A DNA stretch of 62,499 nucleotides, filler included, from Globobulimina sp. (lineage: Eukaryota), in assembly GCA_003354225.1 (NCBI GenBank). It is 20 parts of 20 records of this genome, joined end to end, with 100 filler letters (N's around TTAATTAATTAA, not from the genome) between each part and the next. Parts side by side here need not be neighbours in the genome. Positions count along the whole stretch, not along the records: positions 43,828 to 46,856 come from PIVH01003963.1; 19 more parts are not named here. One strand, 5' to 3'. A program made the position numbers and the translations under genes. The notes beneath the pieces were generated by a model. That model was not told the DNA's origin. It saw only the letters and a list, made by a program, of their open reading frames with translations, and made no database searches. Positions 3,033 through 59,474 of the stretch are shown piece by piece. Positions within the stretch are counted from its first letter, which is position 1, and the number at the start of each line of letters is the position of its first letter.

Positions 3033-3132
3033 NNNNNNNNNNNNNNNNNNNNNNNNNNNNNNNNNNNNNNNNNNNNTTAATTAATTAANNNNNNNNNNNN
3101 NNNNNNNNNNNNNNNNNNNNNNNNNNNNNNNN
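3033..3132. other. Artificial contig linker (first of 19)
   Basis: N44-TTAATTAATTAA-N44 with stops in all six frames. Identical linkers at 6165-6264, 9297-9396, 12428-12527, 15559-15658, 18690-18789, 21821-21920, 24951-25050, 28081-28180, 31211-31310, 34341-34440, 37470-37569, 40599-40698, 43728-43827, 46857-46956, 49986-50085, 53115-53214, 56244-56343 and 59372-59471. Contig lengths fall monotonically from 3032 to 3028. Confidence 0.99.
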
Positions 3133-6005: not shown

Positions 6006-6264
6006 GATTTGATAGATTTTCAACGATTATAGTGTAGTTCAACGATGTATTCAGATAGATAACCCCCCACCCCCCTCCCCGGTATACCGAATATTTCTCT
6101 TACGTTTCGGAAGGAAAATAGGTTATAAATAAAATGTTAAAAGATAACATTTTATTAATAATGTNNNNNNNNNNNNNNNNNNNNNNNNNNNNNNNNNNNN
6201 NNNNNNNNTTAATTAATTAANNNNNNNNNNNNNNNNNNNNNNNNNNNNNNNNNNNNNNNNNNNN

Positions 6265-21920: not shown

Positions 21921-24900
21921 ATTTGTAGCAAAGAAAAGGAATTGGAAGTTACACGGAGGGAATATGAGGAATTAAAACACGAATTACGCGATGGACGCGA
22001 AACCTTATCAGAATTACATAGTCGGCGAGGTAAAATTGAACAGATTGTGGAAGATAATAAGCATAAAAGAAAACAGGTACATACTAAAATGAATGAGTTG
22101 ATGGGGAGATATAATATGAATATGAATAATATGAACATGAATGCGGTGATATCGGCGTTGAAGGACGGAGAAGGACATAAAAAAAAAGAAATGGAACAAT
22201 ATCATAAAAATGCACTGCAAACCGATCAATTGTTAGAAACGGAGATAAATAATTATGTGACAAAGAAGAATAAATTTGATTTTCGAGTGCAGGAATTGGC
22301 CAAACAACAAAGAGATTGCAACACAAAGCAGCAACAATACAATCGGAGATTAAGTCAAATCCGACAACAATTGAAAGGCTGTCAAAATATCCAGCATGAA
22401 ATTGCAACGTTGCAATCTAAAATTGAGCACTTTAAACAAAATGATCCGAGCCAAGGCTGGGAAGCAGAGATCAATCAATGTCAGAAAAGCATTGAACAAA
22501 ACTCAGAAAGAATGCGGAAATTAAATATTCAACGTCGCGCTTTGCAAAACCAATCTGCGCAAACTGCCAAATTACAATTTAAATCGGAACAATATGAGAA
22601 AGCCAATGCATTGTATAACAAATCGTTATCCTCAATAAAAGGAAAGATAGCCCCTATATTACAGCTGCAGAGTGATAATATTAATATGGATGTATTGCAG
22701 GCGGAATTTAATAAAAAAAATAAGTCATTGCGGCAAGAATACGAAGTAGCACAGAGGGAATATAATAAGTTACAAAGAGATGAGTCTGTGGCAGAGAGTC
22801 AATTATCATCGTTGCAGACTGAGAAAGAGAAAATATCGCGGCATTTGAGTGAAGATATTGTGCGCTTATCACAAATGCATCTATCATTAGATGATAATAT
22901 CAATGCATTGATTAGCAAAGCAAGGGCTGATACGCAGAATAAACAGGCGGATTTAGCGTTGGCTAAATGTGGAAGGACATTATATTCGAAATTTAATAAT
23001 TTAGCAAAGAAAAAAAATCAATGCCCAGTGTGCCAGAGACATTTTGATAGCAATAATGCGTTAAATGCCTTTATTAAAACCAATACGAATCGGATAAAAA
23101 ATGTGGAGAAATCGGGTGCTATCGAGAAACATGAAAATGAGGTGAATAAAACGAGGAAGAAATTGCAATCCTTGCAGTCATTGCATCCGATTTATGAAAA
23201 TGCGAAGAAGCAACAGAAAGATCTGCAAGATTTAGAGAAAGAGTTTAAGAAAATGAGTGTGAAAAGGAAGCGGAATGGAGAAGAATTGGAGGAGATGTTT
23301 GTCAGACATATTGAGAACAAATCAGCCTTTGATAAATCTTCCATGTTAATCACAAATGTGAATGAATTATGTCGGCAATATAGAAATTTACAACAACAAC
23401 GACAAGAGTACGAGACTGAAAAGGTAAAATTACAAAAGTTATCACGGAATAAACGAAACTTAAATGATGTCTCCAATGAATATGATGAAATCAGCAATGA
23501 AAACAATGAAAAGAATATGTTGCAGCAAAGGTTACGGGTTAAAATTAATGAGTATGATAAAAAAAAACGTATTACACATAATAAATTGATTGAATTGCAA
23601 CAGAAATCTGCAAATTCTGATAAATTATCAACCGAAGAAAATCGACTCAACAAAGAAGTGCAAGACATGAATGACAATGTGGATAAATTAAATGTCGAAT
23701 TAACAAAACTAAGATCATCGTCAGAGCCGTTAAGTGCCTCCATAAGAAAGAAAAGATCAGAAAGACAACAACAAAGATCCATATCCCAAGCCAAAGAGAG
23801 AAAGCTTCAGGAATATGTAGCTAAATATTCGTCAGATATTCACAACTTACAAAGCAAAGTGAACGAATTGACTGTGAGTGATAACACTTTAGCCAGTGAT
23901 CGATACAGCAATTTAGCGAATACTGTCAAAAGCCAAGAGCTTGCATTCAAAGCATTGCAGGACAAATATAACCACTGCGAGACCAATAAGCATCAGATTG
24001 AGAAATGGTTAGATACGGTGGTTGTGGATAAGCAAGACTTGCAAAGCAATTTAGAGTTTCGAAAGTTTGACCGCTTGGTGAAAAGTAAGAAAAATGAGTT
24101 AAATAATTTAAAATTAGAGATGAAGGAAATACACAGCACTGCGGATAACATATCGATACAGAGAGAAATCGAAGACATTCAAACAAAGGTTGCCATTGAA
24201 CAATCCAATTTAGATCAAGATGTTGGTGGCTCCAACAGTGAGAGGTTGAAAGCAATGGATTTAATGACTACATTGGAAACAGATCGGTATAAGGCTATCG
24301 ATGAAAAATATAGACAGCAATTAATCAAACATGAGACTGTGAACATCGCATATAAGGATTTGGATAAATTCGAGAAGGCTTTGGATAAATCATTGATTGA
24401 GTTTCATTCACTGAAAATGAGAGAGATTAATAGTGTTTTAAAGGAGCTGTGGCAGCAAACATACAGAGGGAAAGATATTGATTATATAGAGATTGTGTCG
24501 GAGATTGGTACTGCGAGTAAACAAACTACAAAACGTAAAAATTATAATTATAATGTAATCATGAAACAGGGCGATGCCTCGTTAACTATGAGGGGGCGAT
24601 GCAGTGCCGGACAGAGAGTGTTGGCATCGTTATTGATTCGATTAGCTTTGGCGGAAACATTTTGTTTAAACTGTGGTGTATTGGCATTGGATGAGCCAAC
24701 CACGAAGCTGGACAGTAAGAATATTGAAGCGTTGGCTTATGCATTCACTGAGATTCTTACTCGGAGGAAAAGAGAAGAGAATTTCCAATTGATTTTAATA
24801 ACGCACGACGAGGCTTTTGTTGAGAAGTTGGGACAAAGAGAACATACGGATGGATATTATCGGGTTTTTAAAAACGATTTTCAACATTCAAAGGCGAAAT

Positions 24901-24950
24901 TATATAAATTTGATGCAAGTCAACAAAATAGAAATAGACATAATAAGATA
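21921..24950 (+). CDS. RAD50: DNA repair protein RAD50, C-terminal two-thirds
   Basis: Long coiled coils, zinc hook CPVCQR, signature MRGRCSAGQRVLAS, Walker B/D-loop ALDEPTTKLD, and H-loop LITHDE. Confidence 0.97.
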
Positions 24951-25066
24951 NNNNNNNNNNNNNNNNNNNNNNNNNNNNNNNNNNNNNNNNNNNNTTAATT
25001 AATTAANNNNNNNNNNNNNNNNNNNNNNNNNNNNNNNNNNNNNNNNNNNNTGGATCAAATACTGTT

Positions 25067-28000
25067 ATGAATTTTTACATATCATCAAATAAAGAATTTA
25101 CAAAGAAAAGAAAAACAGAAAACATTTCCAAAAACGTTTCCAAAAACGTTTTTGAAATATCTAAAAACACTAAAAACGTTTCTGAAAATTTCGGGAATAA
25201 TAAGGAAATAAAAATAAATGATAATCAAATAATTAGCGCAGTGCACAAAGTCGATGGTACGGACAATAAATACTTATTAACACATGAATCAGGCACAAAT
25301 TATAGTATTTGCGAAACCGTATTATCCAAAGCAATCGAAGAAATTAAGAAAAATACGTGCGATTTGAAGATATATAATGAAGAATTAGTAATTCGTGGAT
25401 TTTTAGACGAAGGCGCATCAATTACAATATGTGGAAAGATGGTATTAAACCTATTACGAAAATATTTAGACAATGAGGTAAAGGCATCAATCACCGCAGG
25501 CGGCTTCGACTCGAATAACACAAATCAATTTTACAAATCGTCAACAAAATTAAAATTACCGATACAATCAACAGAATTTAGCATAGTAACCGGAAAAACA
25601 AAGATTAAGAAGGTTTACATTCGAGTATGGTTTCTTGAATGCGTACCTCCGGACTTATTAATAATTGGTAGAGACGCAAGAAAATATTTGAATTTAGGCA
25701 CATATTCAAAGAATGATATCAAAAAATGCATGTTTTATCATGCTCGGCATCAATTATTTAATATACTCCCCGAAGATGAAGATGTAAACAATTATTTAGA
25801 TCAAATTGAGTATCGTCATAAAGGCGACCCCGGTATTTATAAAATAACTGAAAATAATGAAGTAACCGCATTAAAAGCAAGATTTGCAAAGAAATCTGAT
25901 ATTGAAAGAACTAAGAATGAAAATTATAGCATTTCTGCGATTAGTTTGTATACACAAACTGAGAATAGCCATAAATTGAAAAGAGATCAAATATGTCCAA
26001 TAAATTGCATTTTAAAATTAAAAAATGGAGACTTTATAAATAATCAAAAAAATAACGAATCATTTATTTATGTCATTGACGACAAAAATATAGTTAAAAA
26101 TGATGAAAATAATGAGATTAATAATAATACGATGATATTAAATCAAAATATAAATACCGCAGTATTTGAATTAGCAACATACAAATTAACCGATGGAACA
26201 ATTATTAGCTATCCGAAGATTTTAGACAATGTAGAATATGATACAAATTTATTGGGATTGGATCGTGTATATAAAAACAAGTATCATTTAGCACAAAAAA
26301 GCCATGTTTACGCGCGTTCTGACTTTGACGTAGGACAAGTTACCACAGTCAAGCCATTAATGGTGCATATTATTGATCGCTCAAAATTACGATTAGGCGG
26401 ATTCTATCCATTGAATACCGCAGATAATGCAATATTAAATAAAGAAATTGTAGTTTGGAATGAAAATGGTTTATTACATTGGCAGGATCAATCAAATAAA
26501 GATGACGTTGTTGAAAATACGAGCGGAGCGTTCGTAGTACATCGCAAATTAGGTAAAGACGAAGAAAATAATCTCATTGTAGCCTCCCGCGCTGTCAATG
26601 ATTTTAAACCATTGAATGAGAATACGTACCCATACATTTATGACAATCTTACCATCGAAGAATTGCACGACTTAACGTCAGACGCTATATTATCGAATCA
26701 AACTGACATAAAAAAATGGTTTTATCACATTGGATTAGATCAACGTTGCCGCCGTGTCTGTGCTATTCGAGTAAAAGGAGGAGTATTGGTGCCAGAGGTT
26801 GTATTGCAAGGACTAAAGAATGCTCCCATTTATTGCCATAAAGTAGCTTCTGATTTATTCGAAAATGTCGCATATGCGATTCAGGATGATTTACATCAAG
26901 GAATTGTCGCTAAGAACATCGAAATGGCCAAAGATTTAGCTTTAGAACAATATGAAAAGTTAATTGACATCGCTCTGAAACATAATATAAAATTACATTC
27001 AAAAAAGACAAAGATCGGATTTTCAAACTATATTCGAGTAAATAAGCAAATAACGTCCAGCGGTGCTCAGGTATTAAAAAAGCACACTACAAATGCATTA
27101 GAAATGAAATTTGATAAACTAAAAACTAAGACAGATTATCAAGTATTTGAAGGAATGGCACAGTACGTATCGCCTCACGTACATAATTTGGCAGAAAAAC
27201 TATATTTATTACGCGAAGAAATGATAAAAAGCGCTAAATTACCACCAGATTTTAGCGAAAATGGAAAGAAATTGACTATAAAACAGAAAAATGAACGAAC
27301 TTATTTGGTAAAGTCGAAGGAAGGAGAAAAATTATTTGGTGACATTCAAGATAAAATAAAGGGTGCATTGCTTTTGCACCATCCAAATATGAAAATAAAT
27401 AGCAAACACCGTTTCTTATTAGAAACAGACACTTCGTTAATCACAACGAGTGGTTTAGTTTACCAACAAAAACTAACAAAGCCACCATTTTTATTATCAG
27501 AAAGCAAAGATTTAATGGAAAAACAATTGCAACTAAAATATAATTTAATTGCTTTATATTCAAAGTCATTAACGGATCAACAGCAACGTTATGGAGCCAC
27601 TCAACGCGAATTATTAGGATTAAAATTAGCATTTACTAAATTCAAACGATATCTATGTATAAAATCGTTCGACGTCATCGGTGATTGTGAGCCATTGGTT
27701 GCTTTATTCAAATTAAACAAGGATTGCCCGAATAAAATGATGCTACGATGGAGGAGAGAATGTGGATTATATTCATTTAGATTCTATCACAGAGCAGGAA
27801 AATTAATGAAATTATCAGATTATATGTCAAGATTAAGTAATATCACTGACTCACCGTCAATGGATATATTACCAGAAAAACAAGAATTAGCACAAATTGA
27901 AGCTTTTGGAATTCAGTTAGTCGCATCTATTGATTTCAAAATAGATCGCGAGGAGAAAGAAAATGATTTGATATTGGATCGAAAACGAAATCTGATTTCA

Positions 28001-28080
28001 TCGATAAGCACTATTTCAGAAATAAATACCATTGCAAACTTTAAGCAATGTACTGATTTGAAAATATGTACAAATAAATC
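25067..28080 (+). mobile_element. pol: Ty3/gypsy-like LTR retroelement pol (protease-RT-RNase H), partial and uninterrupted
   Basis: Protease FLDEGASIT...IIGRD. RT: RAVNDFKPLNENT, QTDIKKWFYHI, LQGLKNAP, AIQDD, KLHSKK. RNase H: LETDTS, QQRYGATQRELLG, GDCEPL, LSDYMSR. PR-RT-RH order with no integrase upstream of RT. Confidence 0.9.
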
Positions 28081-43282: not shown

Positions 43283-43964
43283 TCGGAAATTATCTATCCA
43301 ACAACAGCTGCAATATGAATCACCTGATTCTTAGAATTAGAAGCGTTTTCGCAATCTCGTGGGAAATAATATTGTTGGTTTAGTGCATCTTGCCAATCAG
43401 TCCATGTTCTAATTGTAGTATATTGGCCATTGTCTACCATATATGAAAATGCACAGTAACATTGGAAGGAATGCATTTAAGTCAGAGGTTGAGAAGTTGA
43501 GAGGTTCGGAAGTTTCTGCGTTAAGAGGTTGGGATGTTCAGAAGTTGGTGGATAAAAGTATCGTAGAATTGGATTATTGTTTCATTAATAATTCAACTTC
43601 TGAACCTCTCAACGCCTAAACTTTTTAGCTATTTTTCATTGTGGTGTTCGGACTTCGACTTTTGTCATTTGTGCAATAATTTGATTGATATCAGGTGGTG
43701 GACATATTTCGCCTTCAATGAAAGATANNNNNNNNNNNNNNNNNNNNNNNNNNNNNNNNNNNNNNNNNNNNTTAATTAATTAANNNNNNNNNNNNNNNNN
43801 NNNNNNNNNNNNNNNNNNNNNNNNNNNCAGTATACACAAACCAAGTTCTATACTCAACAATCAGAAAGGATTTGAACCAGCGCCATCACCTGCTTCCGCG
43901 TCACTCATTAGCATAATTGATGGATTACAATTCGACACAAAGACGCTTTGTACATGGCGTCAGA

Positions 43965-44130
43965 ATACAAAACTTCTATTTACAGCATACACCAAACTGC
44001 TATACATAAAACACCAAACTGCTATACAGTATACCTAAAACACCAAACTTCTATTTACAACATACACTAAACATTACCAAACTTCACACAAAACACCAAA
44101 CTTCACACAAAACACCAAACTTCTATATAC
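43965..44130 (+). repeat. Degenerate ACACCAAACT tandem repeats just 3' of the ATPase gene
   Basis: About six copies of (ac)accaaact(g/t)c at ~43989, 44011, 44040, 44076, 44093 and 44112. Confidence 0.8.
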
Positions 44131-44150
44131 AGTTATTGTCAACAAATCAG

Positions 44151-45288
44151 TTATTGCCGCTTTCTGGTAGAACCTTTAGTTGATTTCTTGGGTTTAGATC
44201 TTTTACGCGCTGTCCATGGGATCCATTTTACTTTAGGCGGCAAAGAGGCCTCCTTGTCTTCCTGTATTACTTCCTTTGAAACTTCTGGTTCTGGTATAAT
44301 GTTTGGATTGGATTCATTTAGAATATCTGTGCGAATTCGCATGTGCTCTGGTGTCGAAGTGCACAAGTCGACCAGAACATATCCATAACGTTTTCTTGCT
44401 TCCCTTTCATAAGCTGATACCAGTGCTCTTTGTTTTCCCACTTGTGATCCCAAAGTGGCAACTTGTTTGGCCATTCGAGGGGATTTAAGCAGAAAGAAAT
44501 ACCCAGTATTGGCCGATATGATTCTGCTGCTGGGCCAAGGTCCAAAGATAAAGTGCAGCAACAAGATAATACTGCAATTTTTGTGGCGCGCTATGGTGAA
44601 AACGTGCGCCATTTCTTTGCTGCTAGCACTTGAGATGGAGTTGTCATCGATGATTATCAAGGTTTGTCCACCATGTGGGTCAGCCAGAGCTTCTAAATCT
44701 CCTTCTGTGACTACCTCTCCTTTGATAAACTCGCATTTTATACCCTCACTTTGTAACTTTATCTTCAATTTGGTGTAATTGTCTTGGAAACCTAAAGTAA
44801 AACCATAATAAACATTGCATCAAACAATGAAACACTTACAGCTATAGAAGAAAAAGATGCGTTTTGGTACCGGATTGTATATTTTGCTGGCATTTTCAAG
44901 TGTTTTCATCAACAGTGTTGTTTTACCCTAAAACATATTGGGTTAATAACTGCAGTAAAAATAATAAACGAAAACGTACACTTTGACTTGCCCCAGCATA
45001 GATGAAGTTGTGTGGAAGTTGAAGTCGTTTATCAAATGCACCCATTGGGTACTCTGCCGCGTTTTCATCAGTGTTCAATTGAGTAAGTGGTAGCGCAACT
45101 TGAACATTTGGCATTTCTGAATGATACTTGTCTAAATGTCTCTTCAGATTGTCCTTTCTATTGCAAGTGTAGTTGCAACAATGACATGAATATGCAGCTT
45201 CTATTTCATGTGTAAGTAAATGTCGATTAAAATTACTGACATATTCGCACATGGTTCCACAAATATTGCAACCATAAACGGGAGCCAT
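44151..45288 (-). CDS. C2H2 zinc-finger-fused A32/Polinton-type packaging ATPase, 3 exons (45288-44980, 44927-44840, 44791-44151), 345 aa
   Basis: Two C2H2 fingers (CNIC...HLLTH; CHCC...HLDKYH). Walker A AGASQS/GKTT is split by a 52-nt GT-AG intron, and a second intron is 48 nt. Walker B LIIIDD, then ARHKNCSIILL, RIISANTGYFFLLKSPR and YGYVLVDL...RIRTDI, typical of Polinton/adintovirus ATPases. Confidence 0.88.
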
Positions 45289-45370
45289 AATTAGAACCGA
45301 CCGTACAGTACAAGTTTTTTAGTGAACAATGACAAAACATTAGTGATGTTCTCTTATATAAGCAGCTGCG

Positions 45371-45767
45371 ATCCTCATATATGAGGATCGGAGCCTTATA
45401 ATCCTCAAATATGAGGGTCGAGATGTATGTAATACTCATATATGAGGATCGGCTCCTTATAATCCTCAAATATGAGGCTCGAAACATATGTAATCCTCAT
45501 ATTTGAGGATCGGCACATGTATAATCCTCATATATGAGGATAGATGCATCTGTAATCCTCATATATGAGGATCGAAGTGTCAGTAATACTCATGTATGAG
45601 GATCGACATATGTAATCCTCATATATGAGGATCGAAGCATCAATAATCCTCATATATGAGGGTAGAAACACTGTACAATACTCATATATGAGGATTAAAA
45701 CCTTTATAATCCTCATATATGAGGATGAGAGATGGATTAATGCCTGAGAATCCTCATATGTGATGAT
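45371..45767. repeat. Array of 12 (+1 degenerate) 18-bp palindromes ATCCTCATATATGAGGAT, 29-32-bp period, variable spacers
   Basis: Units start at about 45371, 45401, 45432, 45462, 45493, 45524, 45555, 45586, 45615, 45646, 45678 and 45709, with a degenerate unit at 45750. Spacers are 11-14 bp and differ from each other. Confidence 0.95.
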
Positions 45768-46620
45768 TTATTCACTAAAACAACGAATTTTGTCAATTTT
45801 TGTCAACGAAAAATCTAAAAACGTCGTTTATTTATCACATATTTGCAAAATATGCTTGAAATTGTAGAACATTGGCTTAAAATTGAAGCGTTTGCAGAAA
45901 ATATTGAAGAAGTTATGGAGAAAGTTACAATTTTGTTCTAAATGTGTCATATTTCATGAAACTTTATTGTTTTTTGTCACAATTTGCATAATAAATGTAA
46001 ACTTCTGCGAAATTTGTGGTTTTATTGTACATTTCTGCCTGAAATGTGAGTGAAAATGTTAAATTGTGCAAAAATTTGCATTTTCAGATGGTTTTTACAA
46101 GAAAACTACAATTTTAAGACAACAATTTTGTAAAATACCCTTGTTTTTGAGTAGAAAGGAGAATATTTTGTCAAAAATAAACAAATTGGTGAAGATTTCT
46201 TTATTTTTCGGGCAGTTCTACAATAAAACCAAACTTTTGCTGCACTTTTACATACCATTATTAATATTTTCTCGTGAAATATCAAATATTTGCAAAGATT
46301 TAACAGAATTTAGTAAAATCTTAACGTTTGGATGCCAAGTTGATGCATTTTGGTCTGTTTATCAGATGTATATGTCTGTTTTACTGATTTTACTGCGGAA
46401 GTGCTAGCTAAAGATTATCCTTTTGCAGTAATATCTACTTCGGATTGTTTCTTTTCATTGTTTTATAAGAAAATGTTATTGTTTTGTACTTAATTATGTG
46501 AAATTTTGACTGAAATGAACAATTTTTAAAAGTAAAACTTATCATAGAGGCGAAAATTGAACAGTTTTTTCGCAAGTCATTCAACAAATACAAAACCTGT
46601 GGTGCGGTTGTGTTGTAGAA

Positions 46621-46856
46621 ATGTTGTTTAACATAAGCAATAAGTTCTCTGACAGTGAAGACAGACATTCAAATGCGAATCACTTTGTAAACCGCCTTCC
46701 TTTTGTCATTGCGATCAACAATTCGAAAGATTTCGTCCGTTTGGAAGGCATTTCTATCACTCCATGGCCTGATAATCCTCTGATAATCTGCTGCAATCTC
46801 TGCGGCCAACAGCCATTGGAAAAAAGTTTCGCGAAAGTGTTGTCATTGACATATGG
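46621..46856 (+). CDS. Putative Polinton-like minor capsid (penton) protein N-terminus, truncated
   Basis: SNANHFVNRLPFVI...VRLEGISI and LIICCNLCGQQPL...KVLS resemble the N..S.F...LP..L...V.L..I and IYCD.V..Q motifs of Polinton minor capsids. Same contig as the packaging ATPase. Confidence 0.5.
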
Positions 46857-59371: not shown

Positions 59372-59474
59372 NNNNNNNNNNNNNNNNNNNNNNNNNNNNN
59401 NNNNNNNNNNNNNNNTTAATTAATTAANNNNNNNNNNNNNNNNNNNNNNNNNNNNNNNNNNNNNNNNNNNNTTA

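Follow-up and report, generated by a model that had tools for sequence, protein, structure and literature searches.

Translocases can be aimed at their substrate by a module that reads sequence, as occurs with the phage small terminase and its pac site, or with the gamma domain of FtsK and the FtsK-orienting polar sequences (KOPS). In several phages the pac site lies in or beside the terminase gene. Phased arrays of short units, in which every unit holds a single palindromic or direct site for a protein that the element encodes, are also known for EBNA1 of the Epstein-Barr virus (EBV) and the family of repeats, for SopB and sopC of the F plasmid, and for Rep and the iterons; these arrays often stand by the gene of their binder, which also regulates itself. 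We know of no account of how Polinton/Maverick-type elements select DNA for encapsidation. In adenovirus, as described in PMC4404914, packaging depends on the IVa2 protein binding the reiterated A-repeats, and the protein is active at the major late promoter as well. Here we analyse a 62,499-nucleotide stretch of Globobulimina sp. DNA (GenBank assembly GCA_003354225.1; hereafter the window), one piece of which carries a gene that joins two zinc fingers to an ATPase of the A32/FtsK-HerA type, and an array of palindromes whose arms these fingers probably bind. A viral packaging ATPase with a cis-acting repeat signal is a known kind of system; what is new here is the fused, co-evolving zinc-finger reader.

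The window consists of 20 contig pieces of about 3,029 bp, ordered by falling size and joined by 19 spacers of the form N44-TTAATTAATTAA-N44 (3033-3132, 6165-6264 and so on to 59372-59471). Adjacent pieces are unrelated, and therefore any feature spanning a spacer is an artefact; the real genomic context of the finger-ATPase gene and its array is the piece 43828-46856 (3,029 bp) only. For comparison we used 11 related metagenome loci, L001 to L011 (contigs of 1.2-3.0 kb), which together with the window locus make up 12 contigs.

The gene is encoded on the minus strand, starts with the ATG at 45288 and is split into three exons, with a spliced frame that is open over 345 amino acids. The predicted product contains two C2H2 fingers and the ATPase, as the initial annotation had proposed, with a flexible linker between them. 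The features of the gene and of the DNA before it are the following:

45371-45767, no strand assigned: palindrome array; the 18-bp unit ATCCTCATATATGAGGAT is present 13 times, at intervals of about 31 bp.
45353-45362, minus strand: TATA-like box TTATATAAG, read from the sequence; the distance is 9 bp to the closest palindrome of the array and about 66 bp to the ATG.
44980-45288, minus strand: exon 1, 103 codons, running from the ATG through finger 1, finger 2 and the flexible linker into Walker A, whose first half (GASQS) it encodes.
45208-45270, minus strand: finger 1, residues 7-27; contact positions -1, 2, 3 and 6 are Y, S, N and R; predicted triplet GAN.
45121-45186, minus strand: finger 2, residues 35-56; contact positions -1, 2, 3 and 6 are R, D, N and R; predicted triplet GAG.
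44928-44979, minus strand: intron 1, 52 nt, GTACGT..TTTTAG, phase 0, interrupting Walker A.
44840-44927, minus strand: exon 2, 88 nt, starting with GKTTLL, the second half of Walker A.
44792-44839, minus strand: intron 2, 48 nt, GTAAGT..CTTTAG, phase 1.
44151-44791, minus strand: exon 3, the remaining ATPase and a basic C-terminal tail, with the stop codon at 44151-44153.

The finger pattern C-x2-C-x12-H-x3/4-H is present twice. Removal of intron 1 rebuilds a Walker A motif, GASQSGKT, at residue 99, and Walker B (IIIDD) follows at residue 178 (44643-44657). The same organisation was found in the related loci. Counting the window locus, intron 1 falls on the identical codon boundary inside Walker A in all nine loci that cover it, with the motif restored by splicing in 9/9, and intron 2 keeps its phase-1 position in 11/11 covering loci. 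Exon 2 was present in all 11 loci covering it, the window locus among them, with identities of 59-100%. The introns are all GT..AG, 48 to 61 nt long, and their lengths are not multiples of three. Exon 1 is complete in eight of the 11 related loci (33-86% identity); L005 and L006 retain just its 3' part at the contig edge, and L002 begins at exon 3. All eight loci with a complete exon 1 have the two fingers, both introns at the same positions and an upstream tandem array, so that the fusion predicted for the window locus turned out to be a conserved one; in the other three, the contig stops before the expected position of the array.

The spliced frames are intact in eight loci (341-426 amino acids) and the frame of L011 is open to the end of its contig. 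Between copies, the ratio of nonsynonymous to synonymous divergence (dN/dS) in the ATPase core is 0.04-0.17, with synonymous divergence ranging from 0.22 to saturation. A pseudogene or a chance open reading frame was rejected on the basis of these intact frames and ratios, and by their sequence the copies appear to be functional genes, not decayed remnants. The three-exon model rests on comparison among loci, which gives strong support for the predicted splicing. The basic C-terminal tails (44151-44300 in the window; proteins P0001-P0030) are variable and share a [KR]-x-W-I-x-W motif, as in PKVKWIPW. Runs of lysine and arginine that resemble nuclear localisation signals come after this motif.

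The array upstream of the gene, which had been put at 12-13 copies some 80 bp from the ATG, contains 13 palindromes at three mismatches or fewer (five exact, four with one mismatch and four with two), and the nearest one lies 83 bp before the ATG. The expected number of copies was 0.02 and 13 was reached in 0/100 shuffles; at the same threshold, no copy occurs outside 45371-45767 anywhere in the 62.5-kb window. Read outward from the ATATAT centre, each arm of ATCCTCATATATGAGGAT is GAGGAT. Successive spacings are 41, 31, 32, 31, 29, 31, 31, 31, 31, 30, 31 and 30 bp, the 41 being at the distal end, and Tandem Repeats Finder (TRF) reported a period of 31 with 11.7 copies over 45371-45730. The palindromes are better conserved than the DNA between them, with a majority fraction of 0.95 versus 0.63 for the spacers.

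We then compared the repeats with the fingers. In the contact model used, each triplet is read by helix positions -1 (3' base), 3 (middle base) and 6 (5' base), and the N-terminal finger takes the 3' triplet, so that the predicted hexamer is the finger 2 triplet followed by that of finger 1. The residue-to-base rules were R at -1 or 6 to G, N at 3 to A, D at 3 to C, D at -1 to C and, weakly, S or V at 3 to T. Helix positions -1, 3 and 6 are given as specificity-determining in PMC4330361. The nine loci in which both the fingers and the array are available are listed here, with the contact residues in the order -1, 2, 3, 6:

Window locus: ATCCTCATATATGAGGAT, 13 copies, spacing 29-32 bp with one of 41, 83 bp to the ATG; finger 2 RDNR, finger 1 YSNR, predicted GAG-GAN, observed arm GAGGAT.
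L001: ATCCTCATATATGAGGAT, 17 copies, spacing 30-31 bp, 82 bp to the ATG; contacts, prediction and observed arm as in the window locus.
L008: ATCCTCATATATGAGGAT, 2 copies at the contig edge, spacing 20 bp, 95 bp to the ATG; finger 2 RDNR, finger 1 NYNR, predicted GAG-GAN, observed GAGGAT / GAGGAC.
L007: GCCCTCATATATGAGGGC, 3 copies, spacing 42 and 20 bp, 92 bp to the ATG; finger 2 RDNR, finger 1 NRNR, predicted GAG-GAN, observed GAGGGC, one miss.
L009 and L010: ATCCACATATATGTGGAC, 4 copies each, spacing 31 bp, 105 and 101 bp to the ATG; finger 2 RDSR, finger 1 NQNR and NHNR, predicted GTG-GAN, observed GTGGAC.
L004: GTCCCAAATTTTGGGAC, at least 11 copies in an array that runs to the contig edge, spacing exactly 31 bp, 79 bp to the ATG; finger 2 RYVR, finger 1 DSNR, predicted GTG-GAC, observed TGGGAC (the finger 1 triplet fits, finger 2 misses).
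L003: GCCACAAATTTGTGGC, 2-3 copies in an array that runs to the contig edge, spacing 41 bp, 230 bp to the ATG; finger 2 RDSR, finger 1 RSDR, predicted GTG-GCG, observed GTGGCG.
L011: direct repeats containing TTGGTGGCGC, at least 15 copies, spacing 20-21 bp, 246 bp to the ATG; contacts, prediction and observed arm as in L003.

The repeat arm equals the predicted hexamer in seven of the nine loci. Within 600 bp upstream, the cognate hexamer was counted 19, 28, 4, 7, 7, 5 and 9 times in these seven, numbers that 0/1,000 shuffles reached, and it occurred 0-2 times in their remaining sequence. Arrays whose locus has another predicted site contain the hexamer just 0-1 times, which makes the matrix of sites against loci block-diagonal. 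Reversing the order of the fingers gave no enrichment of the predicted hexamer. The initial annotation had suggested testing whether neighbouring arrays co-vary with the recognition helices, and across the eight related loci with arrays and the window locus the outcome was positive: at position 3 of finger 2, N goes with A in the arm and S with T, and R at -1 with D at 3 in finger 1 goes with GCG (L003 and L011).

In the matching palindromic arrays the predicted hexamer is always the arm abutting the AT-rich centre; therefore finger 2 would have its C-terminus, from which the linker leads on to the ATPase, directed at the centre of the dyad. In the ATPase tree, N3/GAG appears in two clades that are not sisters, the window locus with L001 and L007 with L008, the latter nested among the S3/GTG loci L005, L009, L010 and L011. 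Thus, the A/T switch in the repeat tracked the N/S switch of finger 2 more than once. In a set of 18 distinct finger pairs, finger 2 has R at -1 in 18/18, D at 2 in 17/18 and R at 6 in 18/18, with N (7), S (10) or V (1) at position 3; finger 1 has R at 6 in 18/18, Y (4), N (9), R (4) or D (1) at -1 and N (15) or D (3) at position 3. All the predicted sites share GNGG because R at -1 and at 6 never varies. The cores are again better conserved than the spacers in all arrays with at least three copies (majority fraction 0.93-1.00 versus 0.56-0.83), and ATCCTCATATATGAGGAT is identical in the window locus and L001 despite a synonymous divergence of 0.38. The spacings of 20-21, 31 and 41-42 bp correspond to about 2, 3 and 4 helical turns. 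Judged from the match between contact residues and arms, the fingers probably bind the repeat arms. A CArG or E-box site for a host factor was rejected, as the arms vary with the fingers.

The loci thus provide at least five naturally diverged pairs of reader and site: GAGGAT, GAGGGC, GTGGAC, TGGGAC and GTGGCG. Natural sets of this kind, which allow two-finger modules to be compared with their presumed targets lineage by lineage, are rare and are useful for testing the rules of zinc-finger recognition. For finger pairs known only from proteins, the contact residues predict a preference of P0186 for GTGGAG and of P0191 for GTGGCG.

Note that finger 1 of L007 (617-979) and of L008 (133-492) lacks the fourth zinc ligand, HLTSLN and HLRSLN replacing H-x3-H. 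The arrays of these two loci are short, with 2-3 copies and a 20-bp spacing.

The zf-C2H2 model (PF00096) scored 24.6 bits in exon 1, just below its cut-off of 25.2, and precomputed PF00096 matches are present on five of 12 homologues of this exon. The two fingers are set seven residues apart, counted from the last His of the first to the first Cys of the second, which is the canonical tandem spacing. An AlphaFold model of exon 1 contained two beta-beta-alpha units, with predicted local distance difference test (pLDDT) scores of 76-87 for residues 1-60, and a low-confidence linker. In the PDB it matched best the complex of the two Tramtrack fingers with DNA (2drp), and all others among the top 50 were C2H2 DNA-binding domains. 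Tramtrack, a natural two-finger module solved on DNA, is 34% identical to the finger exon over 56 columns (E 1.5e-3, a weak value of the kind that such small domains give); unlike the window protein, it is a cellular transcription factor and is not fused to an ATPase.

For the ATPase, exon 3 alone gave 16.2 bits with Pox_A32 (PF04665; E 0.0077, cut-off 22.8). HMMER searches with exon 3 returned 2,106 relatives at E <= 0.001, and among the best 150 most are stand-alone proteins of 200-240 amino acids. When 20 relatives were scanned with Pfam, eight reached the Pox_A32 cut-off, four scored below it and eight had no A32 match, one of these fitting the HerA central domain. A profile search of the PDB by sequence gave only generic P-loop matches (E >= 0.0085). 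P0040 is a full-length, intron-free relative with two N-terminal fingers and the ATPase, 38% identical to the window protein, and its model (70-row alignment) has a pLDDT above 94 in the ATPase part. Its best PDB matches were the B204 genome-packaging NTPases of Sulfolobus turreted icosahedral virus 2 (STIV2) and STIV (E 1e-5 and higher), and its best viral matches (Foldseek, BFVD) were IVa2, giant-virus A32-like packaging ATPases, the mavirus FtsK-HerA ATPase, Sputnik V3 and an adintovirus FtsK-like protein. By homology, and with the modelled fold tested on P0040, the window ATPase is assigned to the capsid-packaging class.

One distant stand-alone relative was found on L012, a 12.3-kb IMG/VR viral contig (1-12321). 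This ATPase matches both Adeno_IVa2 and Pox_A32 and lies between an open reading frame of 1,157 amino acids (no Pfam match) and an rve-chromo integrase, with an adenovirus-type protease further on. The gene set of L012 is Polinton-like, and no tandem arrays were found on this contig.

How does the finger-ATPase compare with the systems described above? With the A32/FtsK-HerA ATPases of Polintons, polinton-like viruses, virophages and giant viruses, and with STIV2 B204, it has Walker A and Walker B in common; it differs from them in the N-terminal finger pair on a linker of 25-60 residues, two spliceosomal introns, the basic C-terminal tail and the cognate array. As with the pac site of several phages, which lies in or by the terminase gene, the array is beside the ATPase gene. 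In contrast to terminase or FtsK, one protein here holds both motor and reader, the latter being a C2H2 pair of eukaryote type, and the sites are palindromic and reiterated 2-17 times. EBNA1, SopB and Rep belong to unrelated protein families and serve maintenance or replication, not packaging.

IVa2 resembles what is proposed for the finger-ATPase in being a packaging ATPase that binds reiterated cis repeats with an AT-rich centre and, in the account of PMC4404914, in acting at a promoter too. Models of IVa2 were the top two Foldseek matches of P0040 in BFVD, but the superpositions were poor (root-mean-square deviations of 30 and 14). Unlike the finger-ATPase, IVa2 lacks zinc fingers and depends on partner proteins at its repeats, and the repeat sequences are unrelated; the adenovirus repeats adjoin the genome end, between the terminal repeat and the first gene. 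Adeno_IVa2 (PF02456) had no match in exon 3 of the window gene or in the 20 relatives scanned, and only L012 matched it. The adenovirid ATPase is treated as a distinct ABC ATPase in PMC11161782. IVa2 is, by analogy, a functional counterpart, not a family assignment.

C2H2 proteins are also present in virophages: Sputnik V4 and V14 and mavirus MV04 and MV06 are zinc-finger or zinc-ribbon proteins whose function is listed as unknown in PMC3671162. As presented in that source, the virophage and Polinton C2H2 proteins are separate genes or fusions with GIY-YIG nucleases, not with packaging ATPases, and no cognate arrays are described for them. Zinc-finger genes likewise occur in the Polinton-like virus (PLV) elements of Tetraselmis, according to PMC9356565. 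In the literature searched, supplementary domain lists of Polinton/Maverick surveys aside, we came across no account of a packaging ATPase fused to a zinc finger, nor of a Polinton packaging signal.

Polinton/Maverick A32-like ATPases had been described in the initial annotation as normally stand-alone. This holds as a rule, but finger fusions recur: a finger is present on eight of the 181 ATPase-family proteins collected. In P0058, P0102 and P0143 a lone finger, which shares the R-D-x-R core of finger 2, stands at the N-terminus. In P0065, P0099, P0137 and P0165 it is a C2HC finger, again only one, and it follows the ATPase domain instead of preceding it, which suggests that the wider family gained fingers more than once. 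Finger-ATPase fusions are recurrent but a minority. A comparison of exon 1 with longer proteins gave no longer fused forms, which is weak evidence.

We propose the following mechanism. In the outer arms of each palindrome, finger 2 would read GAG and finger 1 GAT; if the fingers read the arms in this way, the array would be the protein's own cis-acting docking site. Each palindrome would then offer two head-to-head half-sites, with both ATPase-proximal ends facing the AT-rich centre. Since the spacing is close to whole helical turns, the sites would lie on one face of the DNA and many subunits could assemble side by side. The array would mark the element's DNA for its own packaging motor, like a built-in small terminase with its pac site, or IVa2 with the A-repeats, and because the array abuts the TATA box of the gene, binding would also feed back on transcription of the ATPase. 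Finally, the lineage-specific pairs of fingers and repeats would keep co-resident related elements off each other's motor. The class of the ATPase, the number of phased sites (11-17 where the array is complete) and the lineage-specific pairing all point to genome recognition by a packaging motor.

Taken as a whole, the best explanation, for which we see roughly equal chances of being right or wrong, is that the fingers dock on their own array, most likely marking DNA for packaging. Regarding the purpose of the docking, packaging is a plausible but tentative choice; autoregulation, as an added or as the sole purpose, is evenly poised and is compatible with packaging, and it is likely that both are served. 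More doubtful is the wider idea that virus-like elements merge genome recognition and translocation in one protein, with the co-evolving pairs of fingers and arms acting as packaging-incompatibility groups. For Polinton-type elements, the finger-ATPase family offers a testable answer to the question of DNA selection, a motor with a built-in sequence reader. If the wider idea is true, these elements would have their first defined packaging signal, together with the first set of fingers and sites matched by nature.

A number of points weigh against this proposal. The Polinton-like virus setting of the initial annotation is a conjecture: none of the 12 contigs, which are too short to decide the matter, carries a capsid, polymerase (pPolB included), integrase or protease gene, or a terminal repeat such as a terminal inverted repeat (TIR). 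The flanks (1.09 kb upstream of the window array and 1.1 kb downstream of the L007 gene) have no recognisable coding content, and L012 is tightly packed, unlike these sparse flanks. A palindromic site gives a translocase no direction. The docking on half-sites proposed in the same annotation passed the comparative test, but a role as packaging signal or origin, instead of or besides that of operator, is conjectural: the TATA-like box lies 9 bp from the last palindrome, the array is at the gene's own promoter, as a plain operator or enhancer would be, and this anatomy suggests autoregulation at least as directly as packaging. Concerning the binding itself, the contact rules were applied after the repeats had been seen; the same residue can specify different bases depending on context, as reported from a large survey in PMC4330361; the cognate hexamer occurs 0 times upstream in L007 and L004, so two of the nine loci miss by 1-2 bases; and the loci are related by descent, with perhaps three or four independent co-changes. 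Much of this anatomy would also suit pure transcriptional autoregulation, in which the fingers bind the array only to activate or repress their own promoter and the gene may be host-retained (domesticated). This reading is rather unlikely. It fits the last palindrome being 79-105 bp before the ATG in the window locus, L001, L004 and L007-L010, the TATA-like box within about 10 bp of that palindrome in the window locus and L001, the two CCAAT-containing repeats between array and ATG in L003, flanks without recognisable viral genes, and strong purifying selection with conserved introns, as in a resident nuclear gene; IVa2 is a promoter-binding factor as well, as PMC4404914 relates. However, 11-17 phased sites far exceed the needs of an operator, the arrays of L003 and L011 are 230-246 bp from the ATG, a role as transcription factor alone leaves an intact packaging-class ATPase at dN/dS 0.04-0.17 unexplained, and a simple autoregulatory loop hardly accounts for copies that have diverged in specificity. 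If the gene is solitary, it would represent a viral packaging ATPase retained as a sequence-specific DNA-binding protein.

By analogy with the plasmid and EBV systems, the array could instead be a partition or tethering site or an iteron origin, and the ATPase a segregation or loading motor. Units of about 30 bp with an 18-bp palindrome, or the 21-bp direct repeats of L011, beside the gene of their binder recall such sites, a likeness of layout only; in its predicted fold the ATPase goes with the capsid-packaging NTPases rather than with ParA, EBNA1 or Rep, and the contigs carry no origin features or replication genes. This use of the array is improbable. A mere coincidence, with the array being a promoter-linked satellite or a set of host-factor sites, the fingers having another target and the match to the code being fortuitous or inherited, has a similarly low probability. 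The two loci of nine that miss the prediction, the GNGG common to all predicted sites, which eases partial matches, and the rules being applied after the fact would agree with it. Against this, the discriminating positions shift together in the predicted direction across lineages, the sites of other lineages are absent from each array, the matrix is block-diagonal and 0/1,000 shuffles reach the count in seven loci. Moreover, the predicted hexamer is always at the same place, the arm next to the AT-rich centre, and an array was present at all eight related loci, and at the window locus, where the DNA was available.

Concerning the DNA around the arrays, the TATA-like box of the window locus may be a promoter element, and L001 has the same arrangement of box and array. 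Homology between these two loci drops to about 70% just beyond the array and the stop codon. In L003 (120-200), the DNA that separates the array from the ATG has two direct repeats, both with a CCAAT-box-like GACCAATCA, which fits an ordinary RNA polymerase II promoter. L010 (1-235) and L007 (1-200) carry a GC-rich foldback. It spans about 230 bp and forms a long, almost perfect inverted repeat that resembles a miniature inverted-repeat transposable element (MITE). It sits 300-450 bp upstream of the arrays in the two lineages, whose copies share 91% identity over 127 bp; it either belongs to the element as a conserved portion or is a small transposon in its own right.

Open reading frames of the flanks matched no significant Pfam family, and inverted repeats between the flanks of the piece were not found, the pairs occurring only within the array. 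A search of the piece for RNA families gave only microRNA (miRNA)-hairpin matches far below threshold (<=35.5 bits versus gathering scores of 40-171), which are due to the palindromes, and ARAGORN reported no tRNA on the piece. On the minus strand at 43860-43910, a stretch ending in GGTTCAAATCC resembles a tRNA T-arm and may be a tRNA-derived fragment or a remnant of a short interspersed nuclear element (SINE). Just downstream of the ATPase stop codon (43961-44123) are two more tandem repeats, with 22-bp units present 3.4 times and 19-bp units present 2.5 times, the latter 100% identical to each other. Neither contains a predicted finger site, and weakly similar GT-rich repeats occur at the same place in L001.

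Searches for longer context did not find the gene family in assembled genome contigs or viral contigs; the relatives P0040, P0058 and P0043 were not found in viral contigs, and a two-palindrome DNA pattern had no match in genome contigs or viral contigs. Contigs of three sequencing runs showed no joint at either intron, which has no bearing on splicing or expression; in one of these runs, 92 contigs match this stretch, with many variants and identities from 99% down to less than 90%. The GC content of the window is about 32%. Its source is accordingly a fragmented assembly from an AT-rich eukaryote. The other pieces carry ordinary eukaryotic genes in long open frames, for example for Kelch, class-C G-protein-coupled receptor (GPCR), Rad50, ORC4, CAND1/TIP120, TrmO and retrotransposon RNase H proteins. 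The pieces 21921-24950 and 25052-28078 are each one single open frame of about 1,010 amino acids, one of them Rad50-like, with a zinc hook and a Walker B motif, and the other a fragment of a retrotransposon polyprotein with RNase H.

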